The notes under the pieces are model-generated. The model searched no databases. It was not told where the DNA came from and saw nothing but the letters and a program-made list of their open reading frames with translations. 64,000 nt of DNA. It comes from Lytechinus pictus. Its lineage: Eukaryota. Where the stretch lies: assembly GCF_037042905.1 (NCBI RefSeq), contig NC_087251.1, forward strand, positions 46,130,001 through 46,194,000, written 5' to 3'. Below, one piece after another: positions 4,725-29,343 of the stretch. Within the stretch, counting starts at the first letter, position 1. The number at the start of each line of letters is the position of its first letter. Made by a program: the position numbers and the translations under genes.

Positions 4725-5540
4725 CTTCTGACTTTTTGACATTGCTCCAAGAGCTTTCATCTCGTGCTTGAGGTGCTTTCCTTCATTCTGGCAGACATAA
4801 CAGATCGGTACTTTACACATTACACAGTACATGCTTAAGTTCTCTTCCGTATGTTCCTGGCATTTCGCTATCTTCGGTGGAGTCTTCCCACTTTTGACTT
4901 TCAGGCTTCCTTTGGCAGGGGTTACTAAGCTGTGCTTGGCCAGGGGTCCACGGGCAGGGTGGCAACTTACACGGCAAGCACTGCAGTAAAATACCTCGCA
5001 CTGTTCGCAATAAACCGCAGCAACAGCGGCATTTTGTTCACATAACTGACATTTTATGATCAGATTCTGTGCCTTGCCATACCGTGAAACAATGGACTCC
5101 AGAACTCTGTTTCTGGGGAAGCTGTTGACCCCCTTTTCATCTAGGAATATGATCCGATGACATTGTGGGCAGCTGATCCTCATGGTATCTGGATTAGCTG
5201 GTGTAAAGCCATTCTTACCGACCCCGCTGGAAGCACGTGAACTGGAGCTCGAACCGCTGGCCTGGCTGGGTGCATAACCACCAGCAAAACTCACCCCGCT
5301 GTCACCATCACTGAAAGCGCTCAGGCGGTCGGCCTCGGGGAAGTCAAACGAGAAATCGTACTGTGTGCCGGTTGAGTTCGTCGCCTGCTGAGGCTGCTCG
5401 CTTGATGCCGGTAAAACTGCCGTTCCGTTAACTTGTTGAAGCGATAAAACGCATGGAAAACATATATTATGGGTACATGGTAAAATAACTGGATTCGTAT
5501 AAAATCCTCTACAAGCGTAACACCGTAATTCCTCCTCCAT
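4725..5540 (-). CDS. TRIM9: TRIM9/TRIM67-like E3 ubiquitin ligase, first coding exon (RING + two B-boxes); the rest of the gene continues leftwards, with no further exon identified in 1-4724
   Basis: ATG at 5540 gives MEEELRCYAC...CTHNICFPC. The RING is split by a long Ser-rich insert and ends CPQCHR. B-box1 reads CQLCE...CEQCEVFYCSACRVSCHPARGPLAKH and B-box2 reads CQEH..ENLSMYCVMCKVPICYVC. The exon ends at a phase-0 donor AAG|GTAAT at 4725/4724 (816 nt). Confidence 0.9.
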
Positions 5541-8539
5541 GATCAAAATCCTTCACAGGTATCTTCTCACTCAAGCGATGACTCCTTAACCCGTCTCCAC
5601 GGCGAATCTGCATCTATTCTCAATTTTGAACCAGCGCGTTACACCTGTACGGTGGTAGACTTGCCGTGGGTTTTCAGTCACTCGCTTTCAAAGGGGCATA
5701 ACAAGGGTAACGGTAAAATCGATGAGATATGGATTGGAGTGTCTGTAAACATTACGGCGGACAACGAATCATTTCAAGATTGGCGCTGGTAACTTTAGGT
5801 ATCGCGGGTAAACAGTTTAAAAATAGTACTGGGGGAGCGATGTTCCAATAATCAATTAATAAAATATTATGAAAAGACCAAGGAATGAAAAATGGGAATT
5901 CAAATGTTAATTCAATAGTTTTTTTTACCATACCATAAAATGCATTGGCCTACAAAAAGTGAAGGGTGAATTATCGCAGTTTCCGCATCTATCATCATTT
6001 GGTCTTGATACATCTCTTTAGGAATTTAGGCCCATATATAGGCCTACCCGGCAAATCCCCCCCCCCCCCATTTAATTACGATGCGCACTCATGTTTCTCC
6101 CGGGGTTATCATTATAATTATTTTATTCATTTTTTTTTTTGGGGGGGGGGGTAAGTGCCCCTACTGTTTAATCCTCGATTCCTCCCTAAAAAAATTACCA
6201 AGAGCAGCATCAGTATGCAGAAAAGGGAAAACATAAAGGGAAGGGGGAGAGTAGGAGGAGGAGGAGATGAAGAATGAATAAGAAGAAGAAGAAGAAGACA
6301 GATATAGTACATTATCTGTCTGAACAATACCCCTTCCACAAAAAAGGTATTGTTTAATCTCTAAATCGATCTTATGGAACTATGTAATTGAGACAAAATG
6401 ACAAACAATGCCTCATACTTCATTGGATTTGAATCATTAAGTCTATAATTTGAATCTAAACCTTCATTGATTGCAATGCAGTTTAGAGTGTAGATTTGTT
6501 AATCCGTCGAATCTCAGTGCGGCGGGGCCTTACATGTGCCTGTGTCAATCACCATTTGTATCACTTTTCTAAAATATTTGTGAATTACACAAATATTACA
6601 CCTTTTGGTTTTTGTTTTCCTGGTGACAGAATTTTATGTGATATATTGATGTCAAATACTAACACCTTGGGCCTGATCCCGGGACTATATATAGTGCAAT
6701 TTTTGGGACTCGCTAACCGTTTTTCAAAAATTTTCAGCCTCAGTGTGGTTATCATCCCATTAGGTCTCTGAATTCAATTTATTATTTGTTATTTTCCGTA
6801 GTGTTTTTTTTTGTGTGTGTGCAGTTTCTCTGTCCTGTTTTGTCCTGTCTTGTCCTCCTCTGTGTACACTGTCTTTGTTTTTTTTTTCCTGTTATTAATA
6901 TTCCGTCTTGTCTTGTCTAATCTATATTATAAACACTATCTGAATCGTTGTTTTGTATATTTTCTTGTATTCCATGGGTATGATAATGTAGTAAGGATTG
7001 TATTAAGTTTTATATAGTGCATAAAGCATACGAAGCTCAGTGACCCCATAAGTATTTTTCAATTGAACATTGTTAATTTCTATTTGTATTTTATAAATTT
7101 TAATCAGTTATTTATTTCAGGGGACTCGCATAAACAAGCGATGCTTTCCAGTGAGTTCAAATTTTTTCATTTCTGTTATTCATATTCTGATTTGTTCCTA
7201 CTTACTTCAGTGTAAATTTGTTTGAAATGAAGAAGCATAAATTCAATCAATCAATCACAATAGTGTTCAAATCTAAGTGCGAAATCCTTGCTTCTGTCAA
7301 CCTTAACCCTTCATTCTTTTTTCTTTTTCTTCGTACATTTGGAATTTGTTTGGAGGCTCTTTTTTCTTTTAACTATTTTCGTCTTTTTTTAAAGCATTTT
7401 ATTTTCCACATCGTTTATCATTGTAAAGTATTATTATTTTCATTGCATTTCATATGTTATGCATATGAGCTAATGTTAAAGTGCATTGTTTTTTATTGTG
7501 TAGGGCCCCTTTGTAAATCAGTTTCTTAATTGGAAGGGCTACTTTGATGAAATAAAACACGAATAATAAAAAAATAATAATAAATAAATAGATAGATAGA
7601 TAAATAAATAAATAGATAGATATAGATAGATAGATAGATAAATAAATGAACAAATAAATAAATAAACAAATAAATAAGAGGGGCCGCGGAACGGTTTTCA
7701 AAGTGGGGGGGGGGGCTGACCATGCAAAAAAATCTCAATCATAATTTTTACATTTTTGTACTCGGTTTTGGAAAAAGGTGGGGGGCTGAAGCCCCCCCCC
7801 CCCCCGCCCCCCAGCTTCCGCGGCCCCTGAATAAATAAAGAAATTAAAGAAATAAATGAATATATATTTACATAAGAATGCAGGCCCGTATAGGTCTTGT
7901 TTCAGGGGTTCACAAGAAATTTGTAAAAACAATCTGACAAATCCAAAATCTTTTTTTTTTTCAAAAGTATATCAACTGGAATACCATCAACATTTTCCTC
8001 CCAGAAAATCAGACAAGTAAAAAAAAAAAGCAAACAAAGAAATACTATAAAAGAAAAACGCAATCGTTTCGGGGGGGGGGGTGATCATGCCTTTTTTTAA
8101 TGGCTCGGGAGTCGGAATGTATAGGCCAATGGAAGAGCAAGGAGAGGAAAGGAGCAAGACAAGAGCGGGAAATGTGGGAAAGAGAAAGGAAAGAGAGATA
8201 GAGAGAGAGAAAAAAATCGCAAACCTATGTTGTGCTCGATCGGAGATGGCGTCCTATAAATTTTTCTCCCTGACCGTATTGGCTGCATCAAAATTTGATT
8301 TTCACTCTGACTGTACAGGGACAGTAGTTATCATGATTATGTAATCAGCAGGAGCGGATCCATGATTTACCAGAAGGGGGGGGGGGGCACATTTTCCCGA
8401 GGAAAAATTTGACAAGCAAAAACAAAGGTTTTCAACAAGAAAATCAGAACATTTCGTCCACGAAAAAATTTGACAAGCAACAAAAAAAAAAGAAAAAAGA
8501 TCTTCACTTTCAAAGGGAGGGGGGGGGGCACAATGCTGT

Positions 8540-11500
8540 TTTAAATACATACAAATATTTTCTAGTGTATATAAGCTCATACATTTTAAATTGAAATTCC
8601 CTCAACCTACTGTTTAACGTGGATTTACTAGGTCTTACGAATATTGTACGAATATCGTTTTCAGAGAACTTATAGATTCTCTGCAGGTTCCCAAAAGCAG
8701 ATGATTCTTCAAATTTTACATTTAACATGGCCGTGTAAATTTTTTTGGAGGCAATACCAATCAAATATCAAATCAGTGTCTTCACACGAATTATTTTTCT
8801 TCAAAAGACCGTTCAATGTTAATGGAATATTATTATATAAGTTTATGTATTTCGACTTCATTTAACCCTTTCCTTTGAAAGTCTCTATTTGATCTAAATT
8901 CGCCTTCATTATCAACGATATGATGAACTTTATATATATTTTTCAGAAATACATTTCTTTTAATTAAAGTACATATGTCCATCGATTCGAATAAACTTAT
9001 TGTTAAATATAATTATATTTCGCTTACATGTTTCTTTTTTAAATAAAAATCTTTCATAACCATCAACATTTCCATCATATTTGAATAAAATCTTGCCAAG
9101 AAAAATTCGTTTGCCGAAATCAGAGAAACGTTATTGAAAAATAAAGTAGACCTCCAATCTCTCGAGTTTGGTATTTAAAGAAATGTTTCCATCTCATCTT
9201 AGAATCTCCGAGTATAAGTCTTTTCATCCACATGATTCTCTGTGTCTAAATAAACGAAAATCTATCATTTTAAGTCACATTTAAAAAACATTACATTCCG
9301 TTTAAGTTCGTCTTTACCATAGAAATTTAAACGTACACTGTTAAAAAAACACCTGATTTTACAGGAAAAAAGAGAGAGGATTTTGCAGAAAGCAATAACA
9401 GAGTCATTCTGTAAATTCATAAAATATGAATTTTTCTGCAAAATTAACAGAACAGGTCTGTTTAAAAAGGGGAAAAGGCTGTTTTATTCAAGGAAATTTG
9501 TAAGATTCTATACACCAAATACCAATTTCCTGTAAGATTATAATACACAATCTGGTAAGATTACAGGTGTTCTCGAGAGTCGAGACTCTGCTGCAGGAAC
9601 TTCTTTTATTTTAAGGATAAATTTTCTAACAATGTAAGCCTATCAATTTCCTCAAAAACCCACAGTGGAACTGGAATAAGGGATAAAACATAATTTAATT
9701 TTGAGAGTACAAACGTTTTAATCAATTGTATTTTGCCCACCGTGTTAACAGTCTTTTCATTTTTGCTTAGGATCTCTTTATAATTTATTATTTCCTGAAC
9801 CTCCACATCTAATGAGAAGGTACACTGCCAAAATTCCGGTGTTGATTTAACACCAGCCCGGAATCTATATCTGTCCACACCAGAAAAGTATTGAAACAAC
9901 ACCAGTTTGGAATCAAACCGATGCTGTTTTAATACTAATTGGTATTGTATAAACACCTTTCTGGTGTTAGACCAAAGCGAAACTGGTGTTGTTTAACACT
10001 TCTCTGGTGTGGACATATATAGATTCCAGGCTGGTGTTATATCAACACCAGAGTTTTTGCAGTGTAATACCCAATATTTGAATAAATTCTACTAGTTTCC
10101 CAAAAGGAAATGAAACTTTTTCTTTCGAGAGGGGTCCCGCAATAGTAATATAAAAGTCTTGTCTCTATTTATTTTCAAACCCTAAATTTTCGCATAACAT
10201 TCAAACAGCCTTTCTATTCTATTAATTAATGCGTTATCTTTAATAAAAAAGAGTCATATCATCCGCAAATAGCAGATGTTTCTTCAGACTCACCAAAACT
10301 TTTTTCCATGAATACCATGCAGAGTCTCTGCGAATTTTGTTGGCAAGGACTTCAATACATAGTATAAATAAATATGGAGAAATTTGGTCTCCTTGCCTTA
10401 CACCTCTTTCAATAGTTAAGTACCCAGTAGATATACCTCCATTAAAAGCTTAGTGCACCATTATAGATTGTAGATCCATCTATACAGAATGTAGGAGCAA
10501 AACCAAACGTGTACAAAACTTTTAGCAGAAAAATATGGGATACCGAGTCGAAGGCTTTTTCCAAATTTATTGCTATCAGATATCCCGGAATATTCTTATG
10601 TCGAGTGTAAAAAATCATGTCATCTATAAGCCTTATAGCCTCACCTATGTTTCTATCTTTAATTAATTGCGATCTAACAAGTCGGATTTTTCTTTGGTTG
10701 CCTAAAATATATTCTTTTCAAGGGTCAGTATATCTTTTTCTAAATTATCAATTGTATTTTTTTTTACGTTGTTTTGCTTTTTTTCTAGCGTATTTCCTAG
10801 TAAAATTACCTATTTTCATTTTCATAAAATCCCATAAAAGACGTTTATCAAGTACTTCTTTTTTATTTCTTCTTTCCATCTCAAAATTACTTCTTTATAT
10901 TTTTTTGTGTTTTTCATCATTATATAAACTAATTGCTGCATGATCCGGAGCAATTGACGGGACTATGTTACATGCAGTTTAGAACAATTTCCTCTAATTT
11001 TGTGGATATAAACCAATCATGATCCAGTCTACTCTGCATTAGCGGATTAGCCTGTCTACATGTAATTTTTTTTACCATTCATTTCCCTCTATATATCAAT
11101 TAAGGCATGTTCATCTAAAAATACTTCAAAACTAGAATTGAATCTCGAATGAATGCTTTGTTTACAGATCTAAGTCTTTATCCCGTATGGTATCAAAATC
11201 TCCTCCTATATTAAAATCGGAATATCTTTTCCTTTGATCCCTTTTAAAGTCTTATTAAAAGCATAAAAACAAACTATCTGTTCCAATTCCTTTCCACGAA
11301 CAGTTAAATACACATTCGCCATTACCGCAACCCTTGTATAACACATTCCATAATAATAAACCTACCACCATTTTCTGTAACCACCTTTAAAACTTGAAAT
11401 CTAATTTTGAATCAACCAATGTCATGACCCCTTTACTATGACAAGTTCCATGACTTAAATATGCACTTCCGCGCCAGTATTTCTTCCATTTATCAACAAT

Positions 11501-11892: not shown

Positions 11893-12439
11893 GGACTCCG
11901 CCATTTTTAAAAATCAACATTAACACTATTATTATATATAAAAAAGGGAAAAAGAAGAATCCGAAAGAATAATCAACCAAATTCTGTGTTTTAGCATAAA
12001 CTTTGGTTTAAGCCCTTGTCCCAAAACTTGACGGGCTATCAATGTATGTCAAAGCCAGACTTAAGATCAGCTCAGACCTTCATATAACATTGAAGTGAGC
12101 ACATGCATGTACTATGTAAGAATGAACCAGCCACTTGCAAAGACTCTTGGAAAGACCCTTTCGTGCAATCGGCCCCCGGCTCAGATCCTACCAATAAAAC
12201 ATTTTTGAGGAGGATATCGACTGCAGCTGCGTCGGAAGACCATGCAAAAAATCACCAGGAGGTTTTGATGAAGTATACCATAATAAAGGTGAATGAAGCC
12301 AACACACATGCTTGATCAAACCTGTCTATAAAATGAATTGAGTATTACCAGCCTGAGTTTTTCTTTATAATGAGTTCGGTGCATCTTGGTGTCCCACCTG
12401 CAGAAAACCGTGTTAGCGAAATTTTAGTAACGTCTGTGC

Positions 12440-12570
12440 CTCAACTCCCGGCCGCAAGACCCGACCCCTTGCCTGTGTAGCCGCGGGTTAGACTTCGAGT
12501 TCGAGTGTGCTGGGATTTCATCAATGCGTCACACACAGTTTTGTGTTGATCTGAAACTGGTCAAGGGACG
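12440..12570 (+). other. Probable non-coding first exon / promoter region of DCAF4 (5' limit approximate)
   Basis: A locally CpG-rich stretch ends in a consensus donor ACG|GTGAGT at 12570/12571. A matching acceptor TTTATTTTAG at 13950 lies 20 nt upstream of the ATG. Confidence 0.45.
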
Positions 12571-13970
12571 GTGAGTTGATATAATTTCACTGAAAATAAT
12601 GATGACGATATTCACCAATCATGACATGGCATAGACAGCTGGCAGCCATCTGTTTCGAGGAGTTTTTTTAACATTTTTTTTTTTTTTAATTCTCCTCGTA
12701 CACAGACGGCTCGCTAGCGTGCAGCCACCATTAGGGGACTTGCAATGCGAAATCCCCCCGTCGGGGCTCTTCAATTTTTGTCTTTAATTAATAAAAATTT
12801 TGAAAATTAACGCAACCAAAATGCAAATTAATATTCCCTCTTGGCATTAATTGCCCCAAAACGGAGAAAAATCAAGTTAAAAGGAACAAAAACAGTGACT
12901 TACCTCGGCTGTCGCGCAAATTCACTTCCCCGTTTTATCCGATCTTAAGTACATAAACATATGGCCATTGAGTCCCCTGTACAGATCGCGCTAGAACTTC
13001 GGTCTCTGTATTTGGTGGGTGAAGCCAACGGAGTTCAGCTGAACAACCACTAACAGAGACCGAAGCTTTTGGTCTAGACATGGCATGAAAGGGTAGGATG
13101 GGGGTTCGGGTCTCCGGACACTTTGACTTTATATTTTTGAAGCCTTCTTTTTTGTCTTTGGATTACACTAAAAATATGAATTCAATAGTTGTAATCATCT
13201 TCTATTTTGTTCTCTATAATATTTCCTAACACTTTGTACTAAAAATTTATGAAACTTAGCTTGTAAATTTTTCCAAATGACTTTCTAAAATTGATCGTCC
13301 GGACACACAACCTGTCCGGACACACAACAACTGGGTATATGCCAATAATTACCATGAATCATGATTACCGGCACTCATTCAATGAACAATGAACAAGGTA
13401 CCGGTACCTATTTTGCAAATTTATGAATTATGTTAAACATGATCATGAACAGTAACAACTAACATACAATAACATGAATGATTAATGATGATAATGGTGT
13501 ATGATGATTTCACTTATTTAGAATAAAGTTAAGTTAGAGATGCAACATGCCAAAGATCTATTTCATATCTAGATCTGTAATCTAAATCTTCCCCATTGAT
13601 TCTGTGGTAATTAGCCTGATCACATTAACATGGACATGGCCTGGGTATGGTTAAGTCCCCCAAATTTCCCCCTGTCTCTGTATATTCAAAATGCATTTGA
13701 TTTGTATTTAGACTTGTGTCTGTCCTCCAAGGTATTGTCATATTAAAAAAAAAACTTCGGTTCACAAGATTTTCCCTCTTGATTAAATTGACTCGGGACC
13801 ATAGTCATAGAGGATTTAAATCTAATAATTGTAATTGTATTAATAGAGACCACTCAGACCAGACCTCCCAAAAAGTACATATTCAAATTATTTACCCATT
13901 ATAAAAATCATAATTTAAAATAAATTTCTATCTTTTAAAGTTTATTTTAGGGCTTCCCAGATCTTCAGAG

Positions 13971-16900
13971 ATGTCTGCAGGAGGAGGAGGAGGAAGCAAA
14001 CGCAAAAGTGGACGAAGGAGAAATAAACCAACAACATGCAAGGACAGTTGTGAAAATGCAGATGAAGATCTAATTCAACTTGAATGTCAAGAACAAGAGG
14101 ACTCTCCAGGAACCTCACGTGAAGGCAATGCAGGGTCATCGACTGACAAGCCCAGCAGAGATCAATCATCAAGAGACCTTTCGTCTTCCAAATTTCCATC
14201 TTATTCCAAGAGAAAAGGCAAAATCAGATTAAAAGGCAAAAGCAGTTGCAGGGATGCAGATGACAATGTCAGCCAACCAAAATCTTGGCAACATGAAGAT
14301 TCTCTGACAACTTCTGCCACAGTGTCGTCAACTCCCAACCTCGGCACTGATCAGTCAACAAGAGACTTATCATCTTCAAACTTTCCTTCGTTTTCCAAGA
14401 AGAGAAAGAAAGGCCGGTCAAGAAAAGCCTCACAACATGCCAACTCTCAACCTGATCCAAATTCTTCACAGCAAAATGGACAATGCCCAAGAACCATTTT
14501 CAAGAATTCACAAAGTGTCGGGAATTTGGAGGTGTTGCATCTGGGCAATGCTGCCACAACCTCAACTTCCGGGACGAGTGGTAGTCCAGACGATGGAGGT
14601 GTTCAGGCAGATAGCCCAAATATTAAAAAGAAAGTGGCAGATATCCTTTGTTTTCAAATTATTTATTTCAGTAAATATTGTTGAAATTACTTTCTGATCT
14701 AGATTTTTTTGTTTGTTTCTCCCTTCATATGCATTATGTGTTGCTTGTATTGAAACCCCACACCTTATAATGGGCCTATAGTCCCTATAGAAAGACAACA
14801 TTTTAATAAAAGTGTTTTACAATAGTGCTTTTAAACCTTCTTAATAGTGGCTTTGGATATTTTTGCCCCCCCACCCCAGAAATTGTTGGTTCTGCATCTA
14901 ACATTTAAACAGATCTAAATTGAATAGTTCATATAAATTCTTCGAAGTGTCATTCTACTTAAATTCAATGAAGTGTAAATTTCAAGACAGAAAAAAATGA
15001 TTCCACTCATGAAATACACATTGGCTTGGAAAACAAATATCGTCATCTGGCTTTTTCTTATTTTGAGAATAATGGAATCAGGGCCCCGTTGAAGAAAAGG
15101 TACTATACTTTGCCATTGGATGGTAACTTCCCTGAAAATTTTGATTAGCTGTTTTGCATTGTTACCATGGTATTTACCATTTGATGGAAAAGTTACTATA
15201 ATAGTAACTTTTATGCAACGGTGCCCTGGTCACCAAACAATTGTAGAATGGGAAAAAATTACTCAGGGGCTCAGCTTGGGGAATCAATTTTGCCCCTGAA
15301 ACGTAAAAAAAAAGCTGTGGAAATTAAAAAAGGGCCCCAGGAAATTCCAATTCACTACAATGTAAAATATTATCAATTAGGCTGCTTTTTAGGCGGTAGA
15401 TAGTTCCTCCTTCCTTGACATAAATAACACAGATACCAGGGTTTTACTACGATGAAGAGAAGAAGAGATACTTCCGCATTCTTCCTGGCCACAGCGGTGG
15501 TAACGTTGTGACTTCTGAGACCATTCGTCAGAAAGCAGCCGAGAAGAAACGTCAATGTTACTTTGATAAAAGATATTTACCGGTAATTAAGGGATCCTTA
15601 CGAAAGGTAATGATACAGAACTTCTAGGTGAATATTTCATGAAGATTTTGTCTGTGATTTTACTACGTCACGGACACCTTGCAGCTGATCGGCAAAGAGC
15701 AAATTTTCTAAAAATGGGGAAAGATCACTTGAAATAAGACATTTAATTTTTTTTACCCAATTGTATCATATGACATTTCAATTGTTCTTTATTATTATCA
15801 TTATTATTGTTATCATTGGACAAATTTAAAGCAATTTTTACCTTATTGTTTGCGAAATACATTGTAATTGACCTACATGTAGCTGCAGACACAATTCTCA
15901 TTTTATTTCACTGGCTTCTTCATCTGTGGAAAAGTAATTCCATGTTTTGGGGCTAAAGGCATTCATATTGTTTTGTTTTGGATTGCAAGCCCTGACCTTG
16001 GTTGTTCAGAAAATTATGGGAAGTATATTTAATCTGTTGTTTATGTTTTTCTCTTTTTCCAGCAAATTATGGGATGAAGATTTAATCTATTAATGTTTCT
16101 CTTTATTCTAATTTATGGGAAGTAAATTTAATCTGTTCATGTTTCTCTTTGTCCTCATCACAAACTTGATCATAGGTGCCAACTATTAAAGTGGTGAAAT
16201 CTCTAGTTAAACTGCAGGAGAACAGAAGGAGAGGGAATTGTAGATCTTCTTACTTCAAGAGGTATGTAAGATAATCAAAGTTTTTAGATGATTTGTATTG
16301 GTACAAATTGATTAATGCAAGAATAAGAAACCCTGAAAAAGTAGCAAATGCTTCAAATCATAAGATTTTGCCAAAATGATGGGTGCTTGAATTTGTTACT
16401 GGTACCCGGAAATGAATGTCAGTGTAAATTCAGACAAGGGTTCTAATGTGCAGGCGTCGTGGTGTAGCAGTTCAGACTCTCGACTCTTAATCAAAGGGTC
16501 ATTTGTTCAAATCCCACCACCGCCTAGCATCCTTTGGCAAGGCATCAATCCACAATTTGCCACTTTCCACCCAGGTGTTAAATGGGTACCATGTAGGATG
16601 CAAAAAACCCATGTATTATGCCTAGCAATCGAGTCTAGGAACTCCTGCTGAAATGCTCCCAATGGAGTGGAGAAAGTGCATACATTGTGTGGGCATGCCT
16701 GGAACTGATGACCGCTGTAATAATATAACTTTAAAGCACCCAGAGATGCCGTTCGAATGTATGAAGCACTATATCGTTAAAAGCTGCATGGTGTTATTTT
16801 AAAGGACAAGTCCACCCCAATAAAAAGTTTATTTGAATAAAAAGAGAAAAATCCAAAAAGCACAACACTGAAAATTTCATTAAAATCGGATGTAAAATAA

Positions 16901-19900
16901 GAAAGTTATGACATTTTAAAGTTTTGCTTAATGTCACAAAACAGTTATATGCACATCCTGGTCGGTATGCAAATGTGGAGACTGATGACATCATCCACTC
17001 ACTATTTCTTTTGTATGTTATGAATTATTCTAATTTTCTTCTCATTATCAAGTGAAACAACATTAATTCCTTCCTGAACATGTGGAATTGGCATTGTTTA
17101 ATACTATGGTTCAGTCAAGTTGGTCCTTATTGTCAAATCTGTAAAAAATGAAATATTGTATAATTCAAACAATAAAAAACGAAAGAAATAGTGAGTGAGG
17201 GACATCATCGACTGTCTCATTAGCATGTCACTGAGTTGTGCATATCACTATTTTGTAAAAAATAAGCGAAACTTTAAAATTCCATAACTTTCTTATTTTA
17301 TCTCCGATTTTGATGAAATTTTCGGTGATATGCTAGTTTGATTTTCCTTTATTTATTTAAATCTACATTTTTCCTTTGATTATCTAGATTTGGGTTGTGA
17401 GGATTATTGAAATTCAAATATATATTTGTGTTTGTGTCTTCCAGAGTGGCCCATGAGAATGCTGTAAGGCAGATGGAGATAAAACCAAGCAGTCGGGTGT
17501 GTCCATTTCCTGATCAGTATTTCAGTGGTTCATCGGGATACATCAGTAAATTTGAGGTATTTTAAAAGAATCTTTAGACCTGAATAGCTTCCCAAAGTAA
17601 AAATGAAATCTCTATTGTTTTCACCAAATTTTGCACGATTACCTTGGTCCATGTTGAGACTCGATATGAAAAAAAAAATTCTTCATACAGGATATTGAAA
17701 TTTTTGCCAAATTGCGGTGACATTGATTCCAATATGAACATGGTCAGACTCTCATATCTACTTTTCTTTAAACCCTTATATGAACATTTCAATAATTTCT
17801 GAGAGGAGGAAAGTGTTTTGAATTTGTTGATTCATGACTATTATTGATATTATCAAACCTACAGTTGGATAGCAGGCAGAAGCATGTTCTCATGGTGTTT
17901 TCTGACAACTATTTAAGCAGGTAAAATGAATTCTTATTCTTTTAAATATCTTTACAAAGACTACTATATAGGCCTACATTAGGACAGGTCAAATTTCCTG
18001 TTGTATATTTCATGTGTAATCTACTAGAAGGGAATGCCAATTCCTGTAATTAATCTGCAACACAGGAATTCGTTGGGTGCTTGTCAATTTCATCCTTTAA
18101 TTATCATGTTTACACACTGCCCTTGCGAGTCTGCCCCGCGAGCCGGGGCAGACTCGCCTTTTTTATGTGTGTAAATGCGATTACCGTGTCCGGGCTTCAT
18201 TTTTTTGTTCAATCTAGAAATGTCTGGTCAATTTTTTTTTTCCAAGAAAATCATTTATTTCTCTCAATCTTTTATGAAATTTTTTGGCACACATGCTCAT
18301 AAGAATATAAGGAACATTATGAATTGAAAATTTGTGTGGAATTTAAGAAATTCATGTTTAATCTTTATTATCTTAAGTTAATTGTTTAGAGAATTGTGTT
18401 TATGTCACTCTAGTATTATCTAACTGATAACAAAGCAGGTAACTTTGTGTGCAGTTGGACAGAACTAAAAGATACATAATTGTTTAGTCTCAATCTTTTC
18501 ATTCAATAAATGTCCATAATTGCATTCCTTTTATTAAAAACCACAAATGAGATAGTGCTCATACACTTAATGATTAATATTTCTATTCATCTTGAATGAT
18601 GGATTATCTATGTTATTGTAAATGTGATTTTTATTATTATTCATACTCTGTACGTGCTATGGTACTTCTTGCTTTGAGCACCTCCATTTTCATTATTATT
18701 ATTACACTTCTTAATTCATATACAAGCATGTTTGCAGTTATATTGATGAAGCAGCAAAGGATATATCCCTATTGTCAAGATTTCATATTATGTCAAGCCA
18801 GGGTGCTACATAACTTTTTAGAAGCACTTGCCCAGTCGGGCAAGTACATTTTTAAATAGTTGGAATATACTTGCCCAAAAGTCTATTTCACTTGCCCGAA
18901 AAAAATCATTGAAAAAAAAAGTTTTACCTCTCCAAAAGAAAGTTTTGCGGTTTTAAAAACCATTGACCTTTTTCTCTCTTTTGACATGAACTGATCTACT
19001 TTGTTATTGCATTTCTTTTTCCAAAGTGATTTCATCTTGCCTGCCATGACCAAATTAGGGTCAATATATCATATCGGCCCTAATTTTGGTCATTCTACTG
19101 TGAGAATTTGGCTTGCCCAATTCAGGCAAGTAGTTTTGGTCTTTACTGCAAAACACTTGCCTGACTCTAACTTTTACTTGCCCCGGGCAATCGGGCAAGT
19201 GCTTATGTAGCACCCTGTTGTCAAGCATATTGTTTGTTTAATATTCATTGAAAGATTGTGGCAGGGTGAGGTGGTGCGCAGGAGAAGTCCAAAGACCGGT
19301 CAAGAAGAAGTGACCATCGCCAACTGGTCAAAGGTCAACATCTTGAACACACAGAACACCTCAAAGGTAACTTTATGTCTCACCTGCATAGCAGAGTGAG
19401 ACTATAGGCGCCGCTTTTCCGACGGCGACGGCGGCGGCGGCGTCAACACCAAATCTTAACCTGAGGTTAAGTTTTTGAAATGACAGCATAACTTAGAAAG
19501 TATATGGACCTAGTTCATGAAACTTGGCCATAAGGTTAATCAAGTATTACTGAACATCCTGCCTGAGTTTCATGTCACATGACCAAGGTCAAAGGTCATT
19601 TAGGGTCAATGAACTTAGACCATGTTGGGGGAATCAACATCAAAATCTTAACCTAAGGTTAAGTTTTTGAAATGTCATCATAAATTAGAAAATATATGGA
19701 CCTAGTTCATGAAACTTATACATAAGGTTAATCAAGTATCACTGAACATCCTGTGCGAGTTTCAGGTCACATGATCAAGGTCAAAGGTCATGTAAGGTCA
19801 AAGAACTTTGGCCACGTTGGGGGTATTTGTTGAATTGCCATCATATCTCTATAAGTGTATTGGTCTAATTCATAAAACGTGGAAATACGAGTAACCAAGT

Positions 19901-22900
19901 ATCACTGAACATCTTGTGCGAGTTATAGTAGTTTTCAAAATCAGCACTGCTGCTATATTGAATCGCGTGATGCAGGTGAGACGGCCAGAGGCATTCCACT
20001 TGTTTTCCTTACCAAACACTACAACTGGACTCTATATCTAGGCCTTATGATTCTGGTGATTCCAATTATTCAAAACAGAACTAGAAATACATGTATCCAT
20101 TGCATACAAATAAAAAACATTGATGTTTATAATCCTGTCTAATTAAAAGAAGCTTTCAAACCTTCCTGCTCATGTACATTGCAATCAATGCTTATTATCA
20201 ATAACATTGGATTTAATTAAACCTCCCCTATACTGAGTGAGTCAGAAAAAAAATGTCCCATCATTTTGGAGTTGTCTTGTCTGAATTATGAACATTTTAT
20301 CACTGATTTATTGATATGTCTTGAGAGATTTATTCTCCCTGAACAGTCAGTCGGCAAGCCCTCAAAAAGTGGCTTCTTTTATCCAAGTGATATTAATGAC
20401 TAGAGTGTTTTCGCATTGTTAATGAGCTTGGTGCGGACCAAAACACCTCTTTTTATTCAGCCATTGCTGCTCTAAATATTAACAAAATTTCATGTTTTTG
20501 GTATCTTTATACAAAAGAAAAATCATTCTTTCAGGTCATGTGTTTTAAAAAGATGTATTATAGCGGAAACTTTTGATCTAAAACATGAAACAAAATAATT
20601 ATTTTCATGCAACAAAAGTTGTTGTTTTTACCCTTAATTTCTGTTTGAGCACAAGTGATTTTTACATTATGTTAAAGCTGAAGATCTAAGCTTTAATATG
20701 ATATAATTTTTATATGAAGAGGTATTTTAGATGGGTCAGCAGCCAGTTTTCATAGGCCAAGTACATTTAGCAGCTCAAAAACAAGAATACTGCGCTCTGA
20801 TTGGTCATAGAGACCACACACCCATGCAAATTCCAATGTTCCCCACACTGGGCCTCTGAAGGTCACACTCACCATGTGGTAATCTCTTCAAATTACCCAT
20901 GCCTGTTGTTTTGAAAACGTTATTCAGCCAATCATAACTCTAGATTTTCTGCTACTCAGAAATTTCAGAAATCTCGTCTAGCATCTTGATGGAAAAGGCT
21001 GGCTCCTGACCCATCTAAAAGGTGTCACATATCAAGAGTGACATTGTATGAAAGTAGAGAGTTTGAGCTTTCTGATGATATAAATAATGTTTGTGCCCAA
21101 AACACAAAATTTTGCACAATTTGCAAAAGAAAACAGAGGAAGAAAACTCTGTTTGAGGCCTCTTTTCAGGCCTGAAATTCACCTATTTATCAAAATATTT
21201 TATTCAAAAGAAATAACCAGATATAAAAGAGTAACATTTACTCTTCCCTATGGTACAAAAATAATCAATTTTACTCAAGGAGAAAATGGTTAAATTCTTT
21301 CAGAAAAAAGTCTTACGATTTACAAGATTTTGTAGGGATATGAATTCAGCCACGAGAGGACTTGGATAAATCTGGCTCATTTGCTCATTAACATAGGGGC
21401 TTGCAGACTGACTGTGAATATTTTGGTACCATTTTCATGTGGATCATTGCATGCATGACCGACTACGAGACTACCTCTAGAAGGTTGTAGAACATGTTGC
21501 GAAGAGTTGCTGGGTTGCTGGAAGGTTGCGTAAAATAAAACCATGAACATGTGAATATGTGCTATTGGCTACGTATTTGCAGCTCTAATATGGATTAGAT
21601 GTATAATCCAATGAAATTCATGATGATAAATAATTGTAATTTCTATATATTTCTTTTCATCTCTTATATATGTAGGTAACTCATGCAAGCTGGGCTCAAG
21701 TAAGGGAAGGAGAAAACATGTATGCACTGTATCCTTATGACCACCCATCCATAGTTGCTTCATTTTCTTACAATTTGCCACAAGAAAGGGATAGAGAATC
21801 ATTGAATGTAAAAATTGGAGAACAGAGGATGAAATGAAAAGAGGGAGCAAAACCTGTTAAAGGGAAATTCACCCTGACAAAAAGTTTATTGTAAAAATAG
21901 CAGAAAAAATAATAAAAAACATTGGTGAACGTTTGAGGAAAATCCATCAAAGAATAAGAAAGTTATTAGATTTTTAATTTGTTGATTTGTGACACCACAT
22001 GTGAGCATCTCCCCCGTACATTGTGTAGTAAAAAATCAATGAACTGTCAATTTCTCAAAAAAATGAAAACAGTTTTTATTGTACCTTTGGAGTATCAAAA
22101 GACAAATTATTTTACACCTGCTGAAAGAAAGTATCAAGTCATAATGAACAATTATAAAATTGATATTTATGTATTTTATATTACATAACATATGGGGCAT
22201 CTCACGGGTGTCGATCCGCTTGCGCTTTCTATTCATTAGGGGGAGATAGCGCTTTGTATTATTTAGAGAATATTGGATGGCGAAGAAATATTGTACGAGC
22301 TGAAGAACAATATTGGATGAGTCGAGGACAAATCCAATATTGTTCTTCAGCGAGTAACAATATTTCTTCGCATAAATTCGCTATAAATTGGTAGTTTCTT
22401 AACTTAAGTTTTATTCAGATATGCTTTATCTGGTGGATCGTCAAACATAGTTCAACTTGTCAAGTGTCCAACAGATGAAGGTCAGACATCTGTGATGTAT
22501 TTTCAAAAATTTTTTCTTTCTTTCTTTTTTCTTTTTTTCTTCTTTCCTTTCCTTTCCTATCCTGTCCTTTCCTTTTTTTCCCTTTCCTTTCCTTTCCTTT
22601 TCACTTTCTTTCCTTTCCATTTTCTTCCTTTCCCTTCCTTTCCCTTCCTTCCTTCCATAGATTTATTAATTAATTTGTTTTATTTATTAATATATTTTTT
22701 CCCCGGGGGATGTGGGGGGGGGAGTTTGGGCATTCTGTCAAGCATTCAAGCACAGTAGTACTGTGCTGACATCTAATGACCAAAGGAAGCAACTCTGTGG
22801 AATGAGTTTCTTAGTTAATGAGGAAAATATATCATTGCTTTATATGGAAAAGTATAGATATACTTGCTTTGGAAAATGTGGCTATGTAATACCTACTTTT

Positions 22901-25900
22901 TCAAGCATTGTGTAGATCATACAGAAATATCCCCAAATCAAGAGAAAAAAAGATCAATATTTGAAGAAAAAAAAATAAAGGAAAATGTGGGAGGGTTTTT
23001 TTTTATGGGGGCAGGTATCCTCTGGGTGAGCTAAGATCTGAGAGAATCGTTACGTGGGAATCGTATACATTTGTCCTGATAAGGTTAACATTGTCATAAT
23101 ATGGTCAAGAGCACGCTCAAGTTAATCACACAATAGAGGTATCGTGGCTGAGTGGATAGGTCTCTGGACTCTGAACCCTAGGGTCTGGGGTTCAAATCCC
23201 ACCGCAGCATTCATGTTCTTTGGCAAATCATTTATCTACATTTGCCACCCTCCACCAGCTTATCCGGTATTAACAAATTTCTTGAATGCTTGAGTGCGCG
23301 ATCAGGGTAATCGTGCCTAAGCTGGGGTAATAAAAGGCAGTGCATGGAATCATTGTATTAAGCAAAATATAAACGTCACATTTTATTATCATTACCTTGA
23401 AGATGTACTGGTGTAATGTCTTTCATTAATGCTATCTTGTTGTTTTGTTTTGATAGATGGTATTGCACATATAAGTTACAGCTATAAATGTATCTCCAAC
23501 TCTGCATGGACATGTGCCTGGAGTAATAGCCCTACTCTTCCTGCTCATCTAGCTATAGGTAAGTGGAAATATTGGTGGTGATTTTTTACCTGATTGCTAA
23601 GAAAGCATGAATGCTTGTAAGCAAGCAACCAGAGGACCGACGGCTTAAGGTCCTCTCCGAAGCACCTGGTACTGAGGATTAATGCCTTACCAAAGGGCAC
23701 TAGCGCACCAAGTGAGAATCGAACCCGGGTCACCGGAATACAAGTCCCCCGCTCTACCGACTGAGCTATCGCGCCTCCTTAATGAGGAAAATATGTCATT
23801 GTAAATAGATAGAACTATGCTTCTGTTGACATCCCTTCATTTACGCCATTTTGTAGCTGTCTTCAAGGAAGGATGATCAGTGATATCTTTTTGAGTCAGT
23901 AAACCACCCAGTAGTCATTCAGTATACAGCCAGTATTCACGTTTCCAAGAATTGTTATCATAACAAATACAAGGGCTGAAAGCTTCTGATCAAGTTGCTG
24001 TCAATTGCCTGATGGTTAATGGTTTATTTTCAATTGGTCTAATGCCAATTCGTCCAATTACCAACCTGTCTGCTGTCATTTGGTCTACCATTTGGTCTAC
24101 CACTATCCACAGGGTCTAACTGTCATTTCGTCCACTCGCCATTTCGTCTATTATCCAGTTAGTCCAATAGCCATTTAAATTGTAATTGGACGAAGTGAAT
24201 GAAAAGAAAATGGGTATTACTATTAGACCAACTGGTTATTAGACGAAATGGTCATAGACGCACTGGTGATTAGACGAAGCGATTATTGGACCAAATGGTT
24301 ATTGAAACCAAATGTTTGTTAGACGAAATGTTGATGGACGCAATGGCATTAGACTACATGAACGTAGACCATGTGATGAGTGGACGAGTTGGCAATAGAT
24401 GAAGTGGCAATATACCTGGTTAATTTTCCATGGGAATGTTGAAATGAAAATGAAAAAAATGAAAATGAAAATCCATAATTTATTGTTCAAAATAGACATG
24501 AAATGAAATAGTCCGAAAATTTGCTTTGCCCAATTGATCGTGGGCCCGGCAGTCGCTGTGCAGCGCCAGATCGACGAGGCTCTATCCCTTTAATCGTTGA
24601 ACGCCAAACAGGGTAGCAGCAACTCCCATCTTTTAACGTCTTTTGGTCTGACGCGGCCGGGGTTTGAACCCCCGACCTCCCGGTTGTGAGACGGACGCTC
24701 TACCAACTGAGCCAACACACCGGAATGTTAATGACAACACTACAATGCAAGTACCCATTTTAAGGTCACAGATTAGAATCATAGGTCAGTTGAGGTCAAT
24801 GTTTTCTTATAATCCTTATGCATATGACGTCATCTCATAGGAATACAAGTAAATGGAGTTGTCAGAGATGCACCTGTGGCATATCACCAATGCATTCAAG
24901 GCAGTGGCTTCAGCCTCTAAGATGGCGGCATGGTGATGTTAGTGGATAAGGTCTATTACTGGACTTATCGATTTTGTGTAGGGTGTTCATATAAGGTCTA
25001 TTTTACCAATGAAACAAAGGCAAGACCAGTTGGACATGGTTGGCTTCAGTTTTTGCTGGGATGCACTAAAATTTCATTTGAGGTTACGTTCAATTTAACC
25101 TGCCATGTTTAGCCAAGTAGTTTATAGTCTCAAATCCTGGGTAGCAGATGGATTAAGATAGGTCGTATATCAAATTCGTTTAACAAAATCATAATCTTGA
25201 GAGGTCTGAATTGAAATTATTGTCAATTTTCTTCAATTTGTTATCTTCTTCTTTTTGTTTGTTAAAGTGAAGATTTTGTGGACATTCAACCATTTTCATT
25301 GGCAAAGACTAGCCTGCTTAGATATTCTTGATATTTTTAATTGGTCTAACTATGACTAGTGATCATAGATATAATTCTTCAAATTGCATACTACATGGGG
25401 CGTCGTGGTCTTGTGGTTCTGACTCACATCTTTCAGTCATAAGGTCGCCGGATAGAATCCTATCTGTGGCCTGAAATTTACTCACATCTTTCAGTCATAA
25501 GGTCGCCGGATAGAATCCTATCCGTGGCCTGAAGTTTACTCACATTGTGCTGCACTCAACCCCGGTGAGGTTAATTGATACCCGGCAGGATGGAGTTCTT
25601 GAATGCAATGAGCACTAGAAATGGCAGCTTGAGCTAAGACTGTGATAATAGTAATAATCATGTGCCTTTGAATACATTATGGTATTATATAAATGCCTAT
25701 TTTTATTATTATTTTTATTCCTGTGATCAGGATCAAGTCCACATATTTTCCTTGAATTACCTTGCTCTAACAAAAAGCACTAAGTAATTTCAAGTGCAAC
25801 TATGAACTTTATGCTATTAATGCCAGATCATTTTCTTATTAGTTTGGTTATGCCCAAGAGAGCTGTCTTCTGTATGTCATTATTATCATCAGCATCAATA

Positions 25901-28900
25901 TTTTTATAATTATCATTATTATTGAATGTATTAAATTTTAATTTGTTTGGTTTATTTCATTTCTATATTCACTTTTGTAAACATACAATTCAAAGAAACA
26001 TAGATACAAATAAATTACATAAATCAATAAAAATCAATCAAGCTTACACTTTCAAATTGGTAATAACAATACAAAAAATATACAATAAACAAAATCATTG
26101 ATAAATCAAAACCTTTTAAAACTAATTAAAGTATATATATAAAAATAATAATATTTACCCTGGGTAGCAACTTCAGTTCCGAAAACTGTTCTCCCAGCGG
26201 GCCCTGCTATTATTATTACCTGGCTAAGCTAGGCTACCGATTCAGGTGCACACAGCTTTTTGAGGAATTATTTCCTGCCGGTTCCCATTTACCTCACCTG
26301 GGTTAAAGAGAAATGCCAGTAGTTGCAGTAAACACTGATTTCATGAGAAAGTCTGTAAAACCAGGCTTAATTGTCAGTATATCATCGAGGATCTAGATCT
26401 GGTACAGTTACATAAACTGAACTTTGTGAAATCTTGAAATCTACGCTGAAAAATGTTCACACTGAAGATCACCAACACAGATAGGCACACGTGGGACAGT
26501 GTATTATTATTGCTGGAATAAAGACCCGACGGATGTGACCGGATCCGCGCTTATTTTGCTTATTTCTCAGCAATTACACAATTTCTTTCAGAATCCTTTG
26601 GCACAATTTTTTTATTCATACAAACAGACACTTGGGTGGTCATTATATTAGATTCTGTAAAAAGTCATTTTGAGATCGTTACCAAAACTGGAATTTATCT
26701 TTAAGTGCAGCACAATGTGGATAAATTTCTTGCTGAAGGAAAACACGCCACGGCTAGGATTCAAACCCACGACCCTCTGTTTGAAAGGCGAGAGTCAGAA
26801 CCACTAGACCACAACGCGCCTACAGTTGTCTATGTATGCTTATAAAAAGAAAAGAAGATTATGGTGGTGATGATAGTTAGGCCTATTATTATTATTGAAG
26901 TTGTTGTTGTCATCATCATCATTATCATCATCATCATTATTTTTATAATTATTATTATTTCTTCATTTTTATTTTATTTTTTTCCCTAGGTTCTGATAAG
27001 AAAGCACTAGTGATTGACACCCTCTCATCAAGGGACCAGCCTGTTTATACAGGCCGAAGTGATGTCTTTGCTCAAGCATTTTCCAGAAAGGTATTTCCAT
27101 GTCTGTGTTGTGTTCAGTGGGGTCTTCCTGCCTGGTATCGATAATTCTTTGTGTGGGTGCAGAACGCCCTTAGCGAAAAAAAGTAAGATGGTGAAAAGCT
27201 GTTGGTAATGGTATGATGGTATTGTTATCAGTGAAATAAATATGTTTCCAATGCAGATTTGAATTTCCCAAATTGTATCAACTTGCCTTAAATTGTGTGG
27301 GATACTATTCCAGAGTCCGGTGCTGCATGCGTGAACCATAAAACTTTGTTTTGGCAGCAGGTACATTAAATAGGTCCTTATGGAGTGATCTAAGATTCAA
27401 AAAAATTTTACCAAGAACTAAAACAATTGGATTGACAATTGATTAAGTTCATTAGTTATTTCTCGCTGCAACTTACTGCATTATAATGGAGATACATCAT
27501 CATTTACACATTTGTGAAAAAAGTGAAGCAATTATGATTTCACGTAATAACATAAGAAAAAGGATAATTGGGATATGACATCATCAGTCCACCTAATGAA
27601 TATTCATAAAGACATTCCAAGAACTGTTTTACCTGAATAATGAAAATCTTTAAAATTCAATAACTTCATTATTTGTTTAAGTTGAACAGATTTCTGTAGT
27701 CTTAGAGGATTTGCCTGAGGCAAATTTATCTGTAATTTTCACTAAAAACTGCAATTTATCTCTCTGTTTCTTCTCCCGATAGAGTCCTATTCTGTATAAT
27801 GGAACCCGTTTTGGTGAGGTTCTTGGGGCTGATCTGAGACTACCATCTGATCGCCATGGTAACATGACAACTCAGCTGAAGCATTGGGTCTCAGTATGCA
27901 GCCTCAAACTACTCAAAGATGAAAACTATGTCCTGGTCGGTGATATGGGCGGAGAGGTGAGAGGTTGTCGGTGATTTTGTTTTTTCAAAATGCCAGTTCA
28001 GAGTACAATCTGGGCATGTGCAGATGTTGGTCATTTGTACCCATATCTTAAAGAAAAATGTCTACTGACATGAATAGAAGATTACCTGACATAACTGTAC
28101 TCAATACATGCTACTAGATTCCAAACATCAAGCCTCAGTGGGTGATTGCAAGTCCGCTGTTGGTGTTAGAAAGACAATTTGGATTGCATTTCCTAGTATG
28201 AGATTACCCAAAATGATCCAGATTACAATATTGACAGCTCAAAACCTAGTGAGTGACTTTTCAGAACCAACTTAATTTTATGTTCGGTGCAATGCAAAAA
28301 AAAAATCATGTAAAAATTGGCCTAACACCAACACCAACCCCAAAAGCTCATCACCAAACTTGAAATCACCCATGATGATAAAAAGCTGGGGAATAAAATA
28401 ACTTGAGGTGCTTGCAACAGAAAGGAATGTGCTGAGTGCTACATGATTTAGAGAAGAAATTAAAAAAAAAATTAAACATTTTGAAAGAAAAATTATTTGT
28501 TTTTCTATTTGGAAACAACTATTGCAGTACAAATGTATTAAAGTAGTGAATTTATGTATCTTCATACAAATGTGCCTATATTACAAGACTACACTGCTCA
28601 GAATGTTGCATTGTGGGATTGCAAACTTGGCCAGATTTGAGCAGTTGAGGACTTGATGTGGTGCCAATACACGGCAGCCGGCTTGTACAGGCTTTAAGCT
28701 TATTAATTGATCATCTTCTGCAGATCAAACTTTGGGACATCAGGAAGCAGAGTTCAATCGTGCAAGAGTTCAAAGGTCACCGCAATGGGAGCCACCATCT
28801 TCCCGTCAAGATGGACTCCTCAGAGACCATCGTGTATGCAGGTGAGAGCAGGGACAGCACCAGGGTATTTTGAAGAGGGGGGGGGGGGGGGGCTGGGGGT

Positions 28901-29343
28901 GGCAATAAGACTTTTTTTCAATTGAATTCCATGAGTTAAATGACCTATACATCTCATTTCTATTTTCTTTCCCTCTTCCTTTTTCTTCAGTTTCTCCCCT
29001 TTTTCCTTCAGTTTCTCCCCCTTTTCCTTGTTTTCACGACTTGAACCCCCCCGTACCACTCCTGGATGAGACCATCATATTGCTAACTATCAAATCTCCC
29101 TTTTTTCCTTACTTTTTAACAGTTGGTCAGGATAAGTACACCCGGGTCTGGAGCCTGAAATCCGGTGACCATCTCCACACCATACCCTGTCCGTCGGCCC
29201 GCCACAGGGACAGCGCCCCCGTGGCCGTCTACTCCCAAGAGTTCAGTTGCCACGCCCAACCTGGCTTCTTCCTCGGCCAGGAGAGGCAGATACATTGGTA
29301 TCCAATGAGGACTCCAGAATCCCTTGACACCGAGATCGGATGA
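13971..29343 (+). CDS. DCAF4: DDB1- and CUL4-associated factor 4 (WD40 substrate receptor), 13 coding exons, about 680 aa
   Basis: Phase-consistent exons: 13971-14640, 15431-15606, 16176-16261, 17445-17556, 17865-17920, 19255-19366, 21676-21728, 22419-22480, 23457-23558, 26990-27090, 27783-27956, 28724-28841, 29123-29343 (sum 2043 nt). Peptides match DCAF4 motifs: EIPGFYYDEEKKRYFRILPGH, SAWTCAWS, SDVFAQAF, PILYNGTRFGEVLGADLR, GDMGGEIKLWDIR (WDxR DDB1-binding motif) and VGQDKYTRVWSL. Confidence 0.92.
14641..15430 (+). other. U12-type AT-AC intron in DCAF4
   Basis: The 5' splice site is ATATCCTTT at 14641, the branch site TTCCTTGAC at 15411-15419 and the terminal AC at 15429-15430. Splicing joins G+AG to make the Glu of EIPGFYYD. 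Confidence 0.9.
16453..16780 (+). mobile_element. tRNA-derived SINE
   Basis: Head GGCGTCGTGGTGTAGCAG...GTTCAAATCCC followed by the CCACCCAGGTGTTAAATGGGTACC core. Confidence 0.65.
16803..17377. mobile_element. MITE family A, copy 2 (DCAF4 intron)
   Basis: TTAA|AGGACAAGTCCACCCC start and the same internal sequence as copy 1. The right terminus is degenerate. Confidence 0.75.
18799..19217. mobile_element. hAT-like MITE
   Basis: TIRs CAGGGTGCTACATAA / TTATGTAGCACCCTG. TGTCAAGC is repeated on both flanks (18791-18798 and 19219-19226). Confidence 0.75.
19372..20004 (+). mobile_element. Helentron/DINE-1-like non-autonomous element
   Basis: Starts and ends in T runs. It has sub-terminal inverted repeats GTCTCACCTGCAT / ATGCAGGTGAGAC, a short extra IR (GTGAGAC) near the 5' end, a (GGC)n microsatellite, about 3 internal tandem units (AAGTATCACTGAACATC..AAGGTCAAAGGTCA) and a small 3' hairpin. 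Confidence 0.7.
20344..21414. mobile_element. Non-autonomous DNA transposon with 4-bp TSD
   Basis: TIRs CAGTCAGTCGGCAAGCCC / GGGCTTGCAGACTGACTG. TGAA is duplicated at 20340-20343 and 21415-21418. Confidence 0.75.
21729..22418 (+). other. U12-type GT-AG intron in DCAF4
   Basis: The 5' splice site is GTATCCTTA at 21729, the branch site TTTCTTAAC at 22395-22403 and the CAG ends at 22418. The phase-2 join keeps the frame (MYAL-YALSGG). Confidence 0.85.
23137..23390 (+). mobile_element. tRNA-derived SINE
   Basis: A box TGGCTGAGTGG and B box GGTTCAAATCC, then the family body. Confidence 0.6.
23585..23778 (-). mobile_element. tRNA-derived SINE
   Basis: Minus head GGAGGCGCGATAGCTCAGTCGGTAGAGCG...GGGTTCGATTCTC continues into a non-tRNA body. 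Confidence 0.65.
24000..24412. repeat. Foldback-like element made of ~20-bp subrepeats in inverted halves
   Basis: The left half repeats TTGGTCTA/TTCGTC(C/T)A and the right half repeats the complements TAGAC(C/G)A/TGGACGA. Confidence 0.6.
24515..24723 (-). mobile_element. tRNA-derived SINE
   Basis: Minus head CCGGTGTGTTGGCTCAGTTGGTAGAGCG...GGTTCAAACCCC followed by the body GTCAGACCAAAAGACGTTAAAAG. Confidence 0.65.
25397..25715 (+). mobile_element. tRNA-derived SINE with an internal ~59-bp tandem duplication
   Basis: Head GGGGCGTCGTGGTCTTGTGG. ACTCACATCTTTCAGTCATAAGGTCGCCGGATAGAATCCTATC occurs twice (~25422 and ~25480). Confidence 0.65.
26156..26820 (-). mobile_element. tRNA-derived SINE (family with CACATTGTGCTGCACTCAACCCAGGTGAGG core), split by a MITE
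   Basis: The minus-strand head GGCGCGTTGTGGTCTAGTGGTTCTGACTC...GGGTTTGAATCC carries A/B boxes. The same core occurs at ~3680, 16550, 23240, 25540, 29465 and 59125. Confidence 0.75.
26307..26700. mobile_element. TTAA-targeting MITE nested in a SINE
   Basis: TTAA at 26303-06 and 26701-04, with imperfect TIRs AGAGAAATGCCAGT / ACTGGAATTTATCT. The flanks rejoin as the SINE core CTCACCTGGGTTAAGTGCAGCACAATGTGG. Confidence 0.8.

Follow-up and report, generated by a model that had tools for sequence, protein, structure and literature searches.

The window, by which we mean the whole 64-kb stretch of DNA analysed, carries on its plus strand a gene for DCAF4 (WDR21), a ubiquitin-ligase adaptor known for DDB1 binding and an H-box. 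The predicted protein is 93% identical to the L. pictus protein P0002 over 514 amino acids and 86% identical to the L. variegatus protein P0003 over 665 amino acids. All seven matches of a protein search were echinoderm and six were named DCAF4, the nearest being those of Lytechinus pictus and L. variegatus; by these likenesses the gene is Lytechinus-like. Membership in the DCAF4/WDR21 family is indicated by the PGFY[YF]D block and by the DCAF4 beta-propeller, the latter through P0003, which scores 172 bits against Beta-prop_DCAF4 (PF23761, cut-off 27). The N-terminus encoded by the first coding exon is Ser/Lys-rich and poorly conserved. Pfam gave no match in either exon flanking 14641-15430, and the best 60 of 270 matches in a PDB search were generic WD40 proteins only. 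Residues ~512-810 of P0002 leave DCAF4 and enter a retroelement-type endonuclease domain, at a place corresponding to window intron 27091-27782; this part of P0002 has no match in the 64-kb window and probably reflects either inserted sequence or a faulty gene model in that public assembly.

Table 1. Features of the DCAF4 locus, in window positions
Feature	Position	Strand	Details
DCAF4 coding span	13971..29343	+	13 coding exons, 680-aa open frame from ATG 13971
Non-coding first exon of DCAF4	12300..12570	+	contig pieces 12300-12569 (X15) and 12454-12569 (X1); joints to 13940/13950
5'-UTR intron, major type GT-AG	12571..13950	+	two acceptors, 13940 and 13950, 10 nt apart
First coding exon	13951..14640	+	ATG 13971; ends one base into codon 224
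AT-AC U12-type intron, site 1	14641..15430	+	790 nt, phase 1, codon 224; RNA joint and motifs
U12 5' splice site ATATCCTTT	14641..14649	+	0 mismatches to RTATCCTTT
Multi-copy interspersed repeat inside site-1 intron	15040..15313	.	limits are bin edges
U12 branch site TTCCTTGAC	15411..15419	+	0 mismatches to TTCCTTRAY; predicted branch A 15418
AC acceptor followed by exonic AG (decoy major acceptor)	AC 15429-15430, AG 15431-15432	+	sequence and RNA joint
Second coding exon	15431..15606	+	begins with the conserved IPGFYYD...RYFRILPGH block
Second U12-type intron, site 2 (predicted)	21729..22418	+	GT-AG, 690 nt, phase 2, codon 422

RNA from 4 of 21 recorded runs was aligned to 12300-16400 at 90% likeness. 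X19 and X20, which were assigned by species label, are raw reads (the sample is ~6% of each run, and a joint was called at a threshold of 3 reads per run), and X15 and X1 are contigs. The alignment joins 12569 to 13940 in both contig sets and 12569 to 13950 in raw reads (3 in X19, 1 in X20), the cut being taken at +1 for each of them. The first exon reaches the edge of the stretch covered by the alignment, and its 5' end is thus undefined. Exonic first mates map to the minus strand, so that, given the usual library type, the RNA is that of the plus strand.

Elsewhere in the window we noticed a multi-copy repeat in the UTR intron (12574-13395), an element with 109-nt inverted arms (16822-17371) and a weak tRNA-like match, probably SINE-derived, at 24649-24721. 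The minus strand carries a RING/B-box (TRIM-type) exon at 4692-5552 and an MFS transporter exon at 36623-37774. On the plus strand, 62420 to 64000 is occupied by a frame of 527 codons that opens with a Pro/Ser-rich part and has no Pfam match.

The intron that separates the first two coding exons (hereafter site 1) had been proposed in an earlier note to be a minor-spliceosome AT-AC intron that has a U12 donor at its first base and a branch motif shortly before a terminal AC. Both motifs match their consensus exactly, and the proposal is borne out by them together with the RNA described below. TTCCTTGAC is the sole match to TTCCTT[AG]AC on either strand of the window, and its predicted branch A sits 12 nt before the last intron base, 15430. 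Between the branch motif and the intron end there are only 4 pyrimidines in 11 nt, without a distinct polypyrimidine tract, in keeping with the optimum of 11-13 nt from the 3' end, without a pyrimidine tract, given for U12 branch points in the accessible part of PMC3584512. Taken by itself, the donor octamer is unremarkable, with 1 occurrence on the plus strand against 2.5 expected. Under a second-order Markov model of the window, the chance of finding donor and branch motif at the ends fixed by RNA is p ~6e-7. Among 13 introns of the gene, site 1 and the site 2 described below match the U12 donor with at most one mismatch, and the other 11 have 3-7. On the minus strand, GTATCCTT/ATATCCTT motifs at 18764, 32850, 37744 and 54369 show no exon context and were taken as chance occurrences; the one at 37744 falls in the intron tail preceding an MFS exon. 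The repeat inside the intron draws reads on both strands with many other letters and loose ends, and contig depth there runs from hundreds to thousands.

Joining 14640 to 15431 makes G+AG, a Glu codon, and yields KKVA-E-IPGFYYD, as had been foreseen; the vertebrate motif cited for comparison, ELPGFYFD, is indeed present in human protein P0163. Six acceptors were tried with the AT donor, and only 15430 both stays open and restores Glu-Ile-Pro, four of the six reaching stops. Acceptors 15399, 15403, 15428 and 15432 were ruled out by frame or lost residues as well as by the RNA joints, and AG 15439 leaves an open frame from which E-I-P is deleted. Retention of the intron would bring a stop at 14682-14684 and a product of 237 amino acids that ends ahead of every conserved DCAF4 block, and either acceptor adjacent to 15430 shifts the frame; failure to splice correctly at site 1 would therefore be costly.

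The joint from 14640 to 15431, which skips 790 nucleotides beginning with AT and ending with AC, was found in three of the four runs and two of three studies, with a total of 6 raw reads and 1 contig: 3 reads with 3 starts in X19, 3 reads with 3 starts in X20, and in X15 a contig of depth 15 with 174 letters on its short side. For X1 no such joint was called; its two contigs end at this place, each leaving a few letters unplaced (14 and 15), a pattern compatible with that junction but not proof of it. Thus, the intron is excised exactly at AT...AC, between 14640 and 15431, and the junction yields full-length DCAF4.

The idea that the exonic AG at 15432 would mislead gene predictors needs qualifying. 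The public L. pictus and S. purpuratus models both have the junction Glu, so the predictors were not misled there, whereas models of other species disagree at this point. The L. variegatus model has Lys, as is expected of a phase-1 junction when the final base of the exon differs. Models of amphioxus (P0017 vs P0159), mussel (P0031 and P0179 vs P0180) and brittle star (P0012) conflict or are truncated at site 1. Intron ends read from a Gln or His before Ile or Leu in truncated proteins (Amphiura, Ptychodera, amphioxus, Mytilus) are suggestive and not diagnostic, because Gln occurs there likewise in Haliotis models and in Holothuria P0014, a protein taken from a Logan contig of 3.2 kb.

We hold with little doubt that 14641-15430 is a constitutively spliced, U12-dependent AT-AC intron at an ancient, class-switching site, and that its gene retains a further, predicted U12 intron. 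Its U12 class is assigned from sequence. By this assignment U11 would recognise ATATCCTTT, U12 would pair with TTCCTTGAC and bulge A15418, and U4atac/U6atac with U5 would catalyse splicing. The acceptor would be picked by its 12-nt distance from the branch point, so that AC 15430 beats AC 15428 and AG 15432. No minor snRNA gene lies within the 64-kb window; for S. purpuratus, the supplement of PMC11347168 records U11, U12, U4atac and U6atac genes and 274 minor introns.

An ordinary GT-AG intron that runs from a nearby GT to AG 15432, with the U12 motifs present by chance, is compatible with the frame, since GT 14322, 14517, 14532, 14601 and 14634 (5 of the 19 GTs in 14300-14700) are all in frame with that AG and the use of 14634 costs only three codons. 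One spiralian-like group of loci, moreover, appears to use the equivalent AG at +2. The RNA decides against it: among 15 of 16 joint rows none starts at any of these GT donors (14532 and 14634 included), none ends at AG 15432, and the pairing of the two that the earlier note had named as its refutation is absent, so that, at a detection floor of 3 reads per run, the recurrent AT-AC joint rules out this splice pattern as the main form, though it may occur as a rare side product below that floor. Glu is kept at the junction in the L. pictus and S. purpuratus proteins, and the small joint chance of the two motifs also weighs against a GT-AG intron, which we consider highly improbable. Equally improbable, in our view, is its removal, as an AT-AC intron, by the major spliceosome. 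U2-dependent AT-AC introns do exist, as in sodium-channel genes (PMC1557818 and PMC2831892, in the portions available), and the first coding exon ends in CAG, a good U1 context. However, U2-type AT-AC introns have G at +5 (PMC2831892, same portion) and no U12 branch site; here +5 is C, the U12 donor and branch site are perfect, and pyrimidines are scarce at the 3' end.

A regulatory role could be added to the U12-dependent reading, with slow splicing at site 1 throttling DCAF4 output and the second minor intron reinforcing the effect. The retention product would be truncated by a stop. Minor introns as a class show ~2-fold higher retention on average, according to the accessible part of PMC4615840, and Table S6 of PMC11347168 lists the human DCAF4 site-2 intron as responsive to U12, U4atac and U6atac morpholinos. 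The earlier remark that such introns are often rate-limiting holds as a class average, but at site 1 no retention was seen: all four runs have a depth of 0 in the two intron bins outside the repeat (14766-15039), and the depth of the boundary bins is accounted for, by our own arithmetic, by the exonic bases in them. These figures come from low coverage, with exon bins reaching at most 10x, and a 2-fold effect could not be detected at this depth; the next intron, a major one, is just as devoid of raw reads, and 0 of 6 junction reads bounds retention, again by our arithmetic, only below ~40%. We regard the throttle as an unlikely addition.

The second minor intron, site 2, had escaped the earlier note. 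Its donor, GTATCCTTA, has at most one mismatch to the U12 consensus; a branch-like TTTCTTAAC at 22395-22403 has one mismatch, with its A 16 nt before the intron end, beyond the optimum. The predicted junction agrees with homologous proteins. Several public vertebrate models read through the site-2 donor.

Human and mouse DCAF4 have one catalogued minor intron each, the human one at chr14:72947192-72951797 (PMC6717393, also PMC7507305), and the supplement of PMC6717393 gives the donors as TCT/GTATCC and ACT/GTATCC. The urchin site-2 donor, ACT/GTATCC, has the same context, and by sequence the catalogued intron matches urchin site 2 and not AT-AC site 1, which differs from it in codon and phase (codon 224, phase 1 vs codon 422, phase 2 at site 2). 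In one alignment urchin codon 422 shares a column with the leucine of the vertebrate His-Ile-Leu; in another the two are one column apart, because echinoderms have one extra residue upstream, and anchored on the Gly five residues downstream they are the same. The donor of another human DCAF4 intron, 72939903-72940251, is presumably the human equivalent of site 1. Table S6 of PMC11347168 lists that second intron as major_hybrid, a class which, in our own reading of the accessible part, is named for a major-type 5' splice site; Table S8 of the same paper has 'no_ortholog' for S. purpuratus in its DCAF4 column.

To follow both sites in other lineages, we scanned metagenomes, in which 283 stretches matched, 105 were confirmed and 80 loci were kept, many of them near-duplicates or fungal-like genes without an intron at site 1. 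Taxa were taken from the nearest named proteins, and introns from genomic motifs and open frames. Site 1 was scored as U12-type when two signals went together, namely a U12 donor whose phase-1 frame had 40 or more open codons and, 9-18 nt ahead of the same acceptor position, a branch motif with no more than 2 mismatches. By itself the open-frame filter discriminates poorly: the 9 upstream donor motifs include 6 that are open in phase 1, against 4 for phase 0 and 3 for phase 2. Six of 79 assessable loci passed. One of the six (L042) is a false positive, in which the upstream donor belongs to a thiamine-pyrophosphate enzyme gene and the real donor is major-type, ~100 nt upstream; the U12-type donor at 4058 of this locus lies in that neighbouring plant gene.

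L001 has a predicted U12 AT-AC intron of 231 nt at site 1. Its best identity is with the brittle star Amphiura (76%), and we call it echinoderm-like only tentatively because mammalian proteins are equal on bit score. Site 1 holds a predicted U12 GT-AG intron in three spiralian-like loci (L004, L005 and L022) and in the coral-like L044, whose nearest protein is from Pocillopora. L038, L039, L060 and L007 carry the branch motif on contigs that lack the donor. Two vertebrate-like loci, L002 (nearest Crotalus) and L003 (nearest a teleost), have their intron at the same place, marked by major donors and pyrimidine tracts. Read by eye, 7 of 8 plant loci have, in the same phase and just a few codons past the start, a donor of the major type. 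A further spiralian-like group apparently has a YAG two bases downstream of the old acceptor, preceded in some cases by an in-frame stop; candidate GTGAGT donors in phase 0 turned up in 2 of the 17 loci examined. In L006 (1300-3208) and L013 (359/413-972) the acceptor has seemingly moved two bases onto a formerly exonic AG; both have phase-0 major donor candidates, and the L006 exon ends in CAT right before GT. The bivalve-like L007 has at 185-208 a U12 branch motif 11 nt before an AT and 13 nt before an AG, so that its intron may end either in AT or in a shifted AG.

At site 2, U12 donor and branch motifs are present in 7 of 19 loci scanned, namely L002, L044 and five plant loci, several other loci ending before the site. 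The site appears to fall within one long exon in L004, L005 and L007. In the reptile-like L002 the site-2 intron (8411-9682) starts with AT, where the others have GT; its homologue-matching end, AA, is 13 nt from the branch A, and an in-frame AG offers an alternative at 10 nt.

These comparisons indicate that site 1 was inherited, that it was U12-type in the cnidarian-bilaterian ancestor, and that its GT-AG and AT-AC ends have switched since. In the sampled vertebrates and plants site 1 is major-type; the position is an old one, and in vertebrates a change to the major type seems to have taken place. A broader reading, which we put forward tentatively and as a whole, is that both intron positions of DCAF4 date from the plant-animal ancestor and were minor at the outset, and that site 1 displays every proposed route of turnover. 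Under this possible history site 1 would be AT-AC in echinoderms and GT-AG U12 in corals and spiralians, one spiralian group would have escaped the minor spliceosome by a two-base slide onto the exonic AG, and a switch from GT-AG to AT-AC may have occurred, against the direction usually proposed. Human-centred catalogues would then miss site 1 because vertebrates converted it.

For the gene itself the junction fixes the model: without 14640/15431 the conserved portion of DCAF4 goes missing or is truncated, and for several invertebrates the public models conflict at exactly this place. For intron evolution, site 1 is a clear example of a minor intron that cannot be seen when one starts from human, DCAF4 having two minor introns in sea urchin and coral and one in mammals. 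Urchin embryos accept morpholinos, so it is testable whether a pair of minor introns throttles a gene more strongly than a single one does.

We found no paper on the site-1 intron in the literature searched; WtMTA, IAOD, MIDB, bioRxiv supplements and subscription journals lay outside that search and may list it. DCAF4 is not mentioned in the main text of PMC2831892, PMC7367187 or PMC10639083 and has no row in the searchable supplements of PMC10639083 and PMC4066798. Because the site is major in human, human-anchored orthology tables cannot list it. The intron is otherwise an ordinary, textbook AT-AC minor intron whose host gene and species we did not find in the searched literature, and it leaves the known picture of minor splicing unchanged.

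Set beside known systems, site 1 shares with the canonical U12-type AT-AC introns of animals and plants (PMC3584512, part seen) the donor, the branch site, the 12-nt spacing, the AT-AC ends, a non-zero phase and the missing pyrimidine tract; the signals are identical, and only the host gene and species are absent from the searched portions of the papers. The catalogued human and mouse DCAF4 intron belongs to the same gene family and resembles urchin site 2 in donor context and position, but it lies ~200 codons further on than site 1 and begins with GT. The three states of site 1 by lineage resemble published U12 subtype switching and U12-to-U2 conversion (PMC2831892, PMC1557818 and PMC7367187, in the parts available), as does site 2, which begins with AT in a single reptile-like locus and with GT in the others. 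Subtype switching was recorded there in 36 clusters (PMC2831892), the order proposed in these three papers runs from AT-AC through GT-AG to U2, and the title of PMC10639083 argues that minor-intron evolution is largely neutral.
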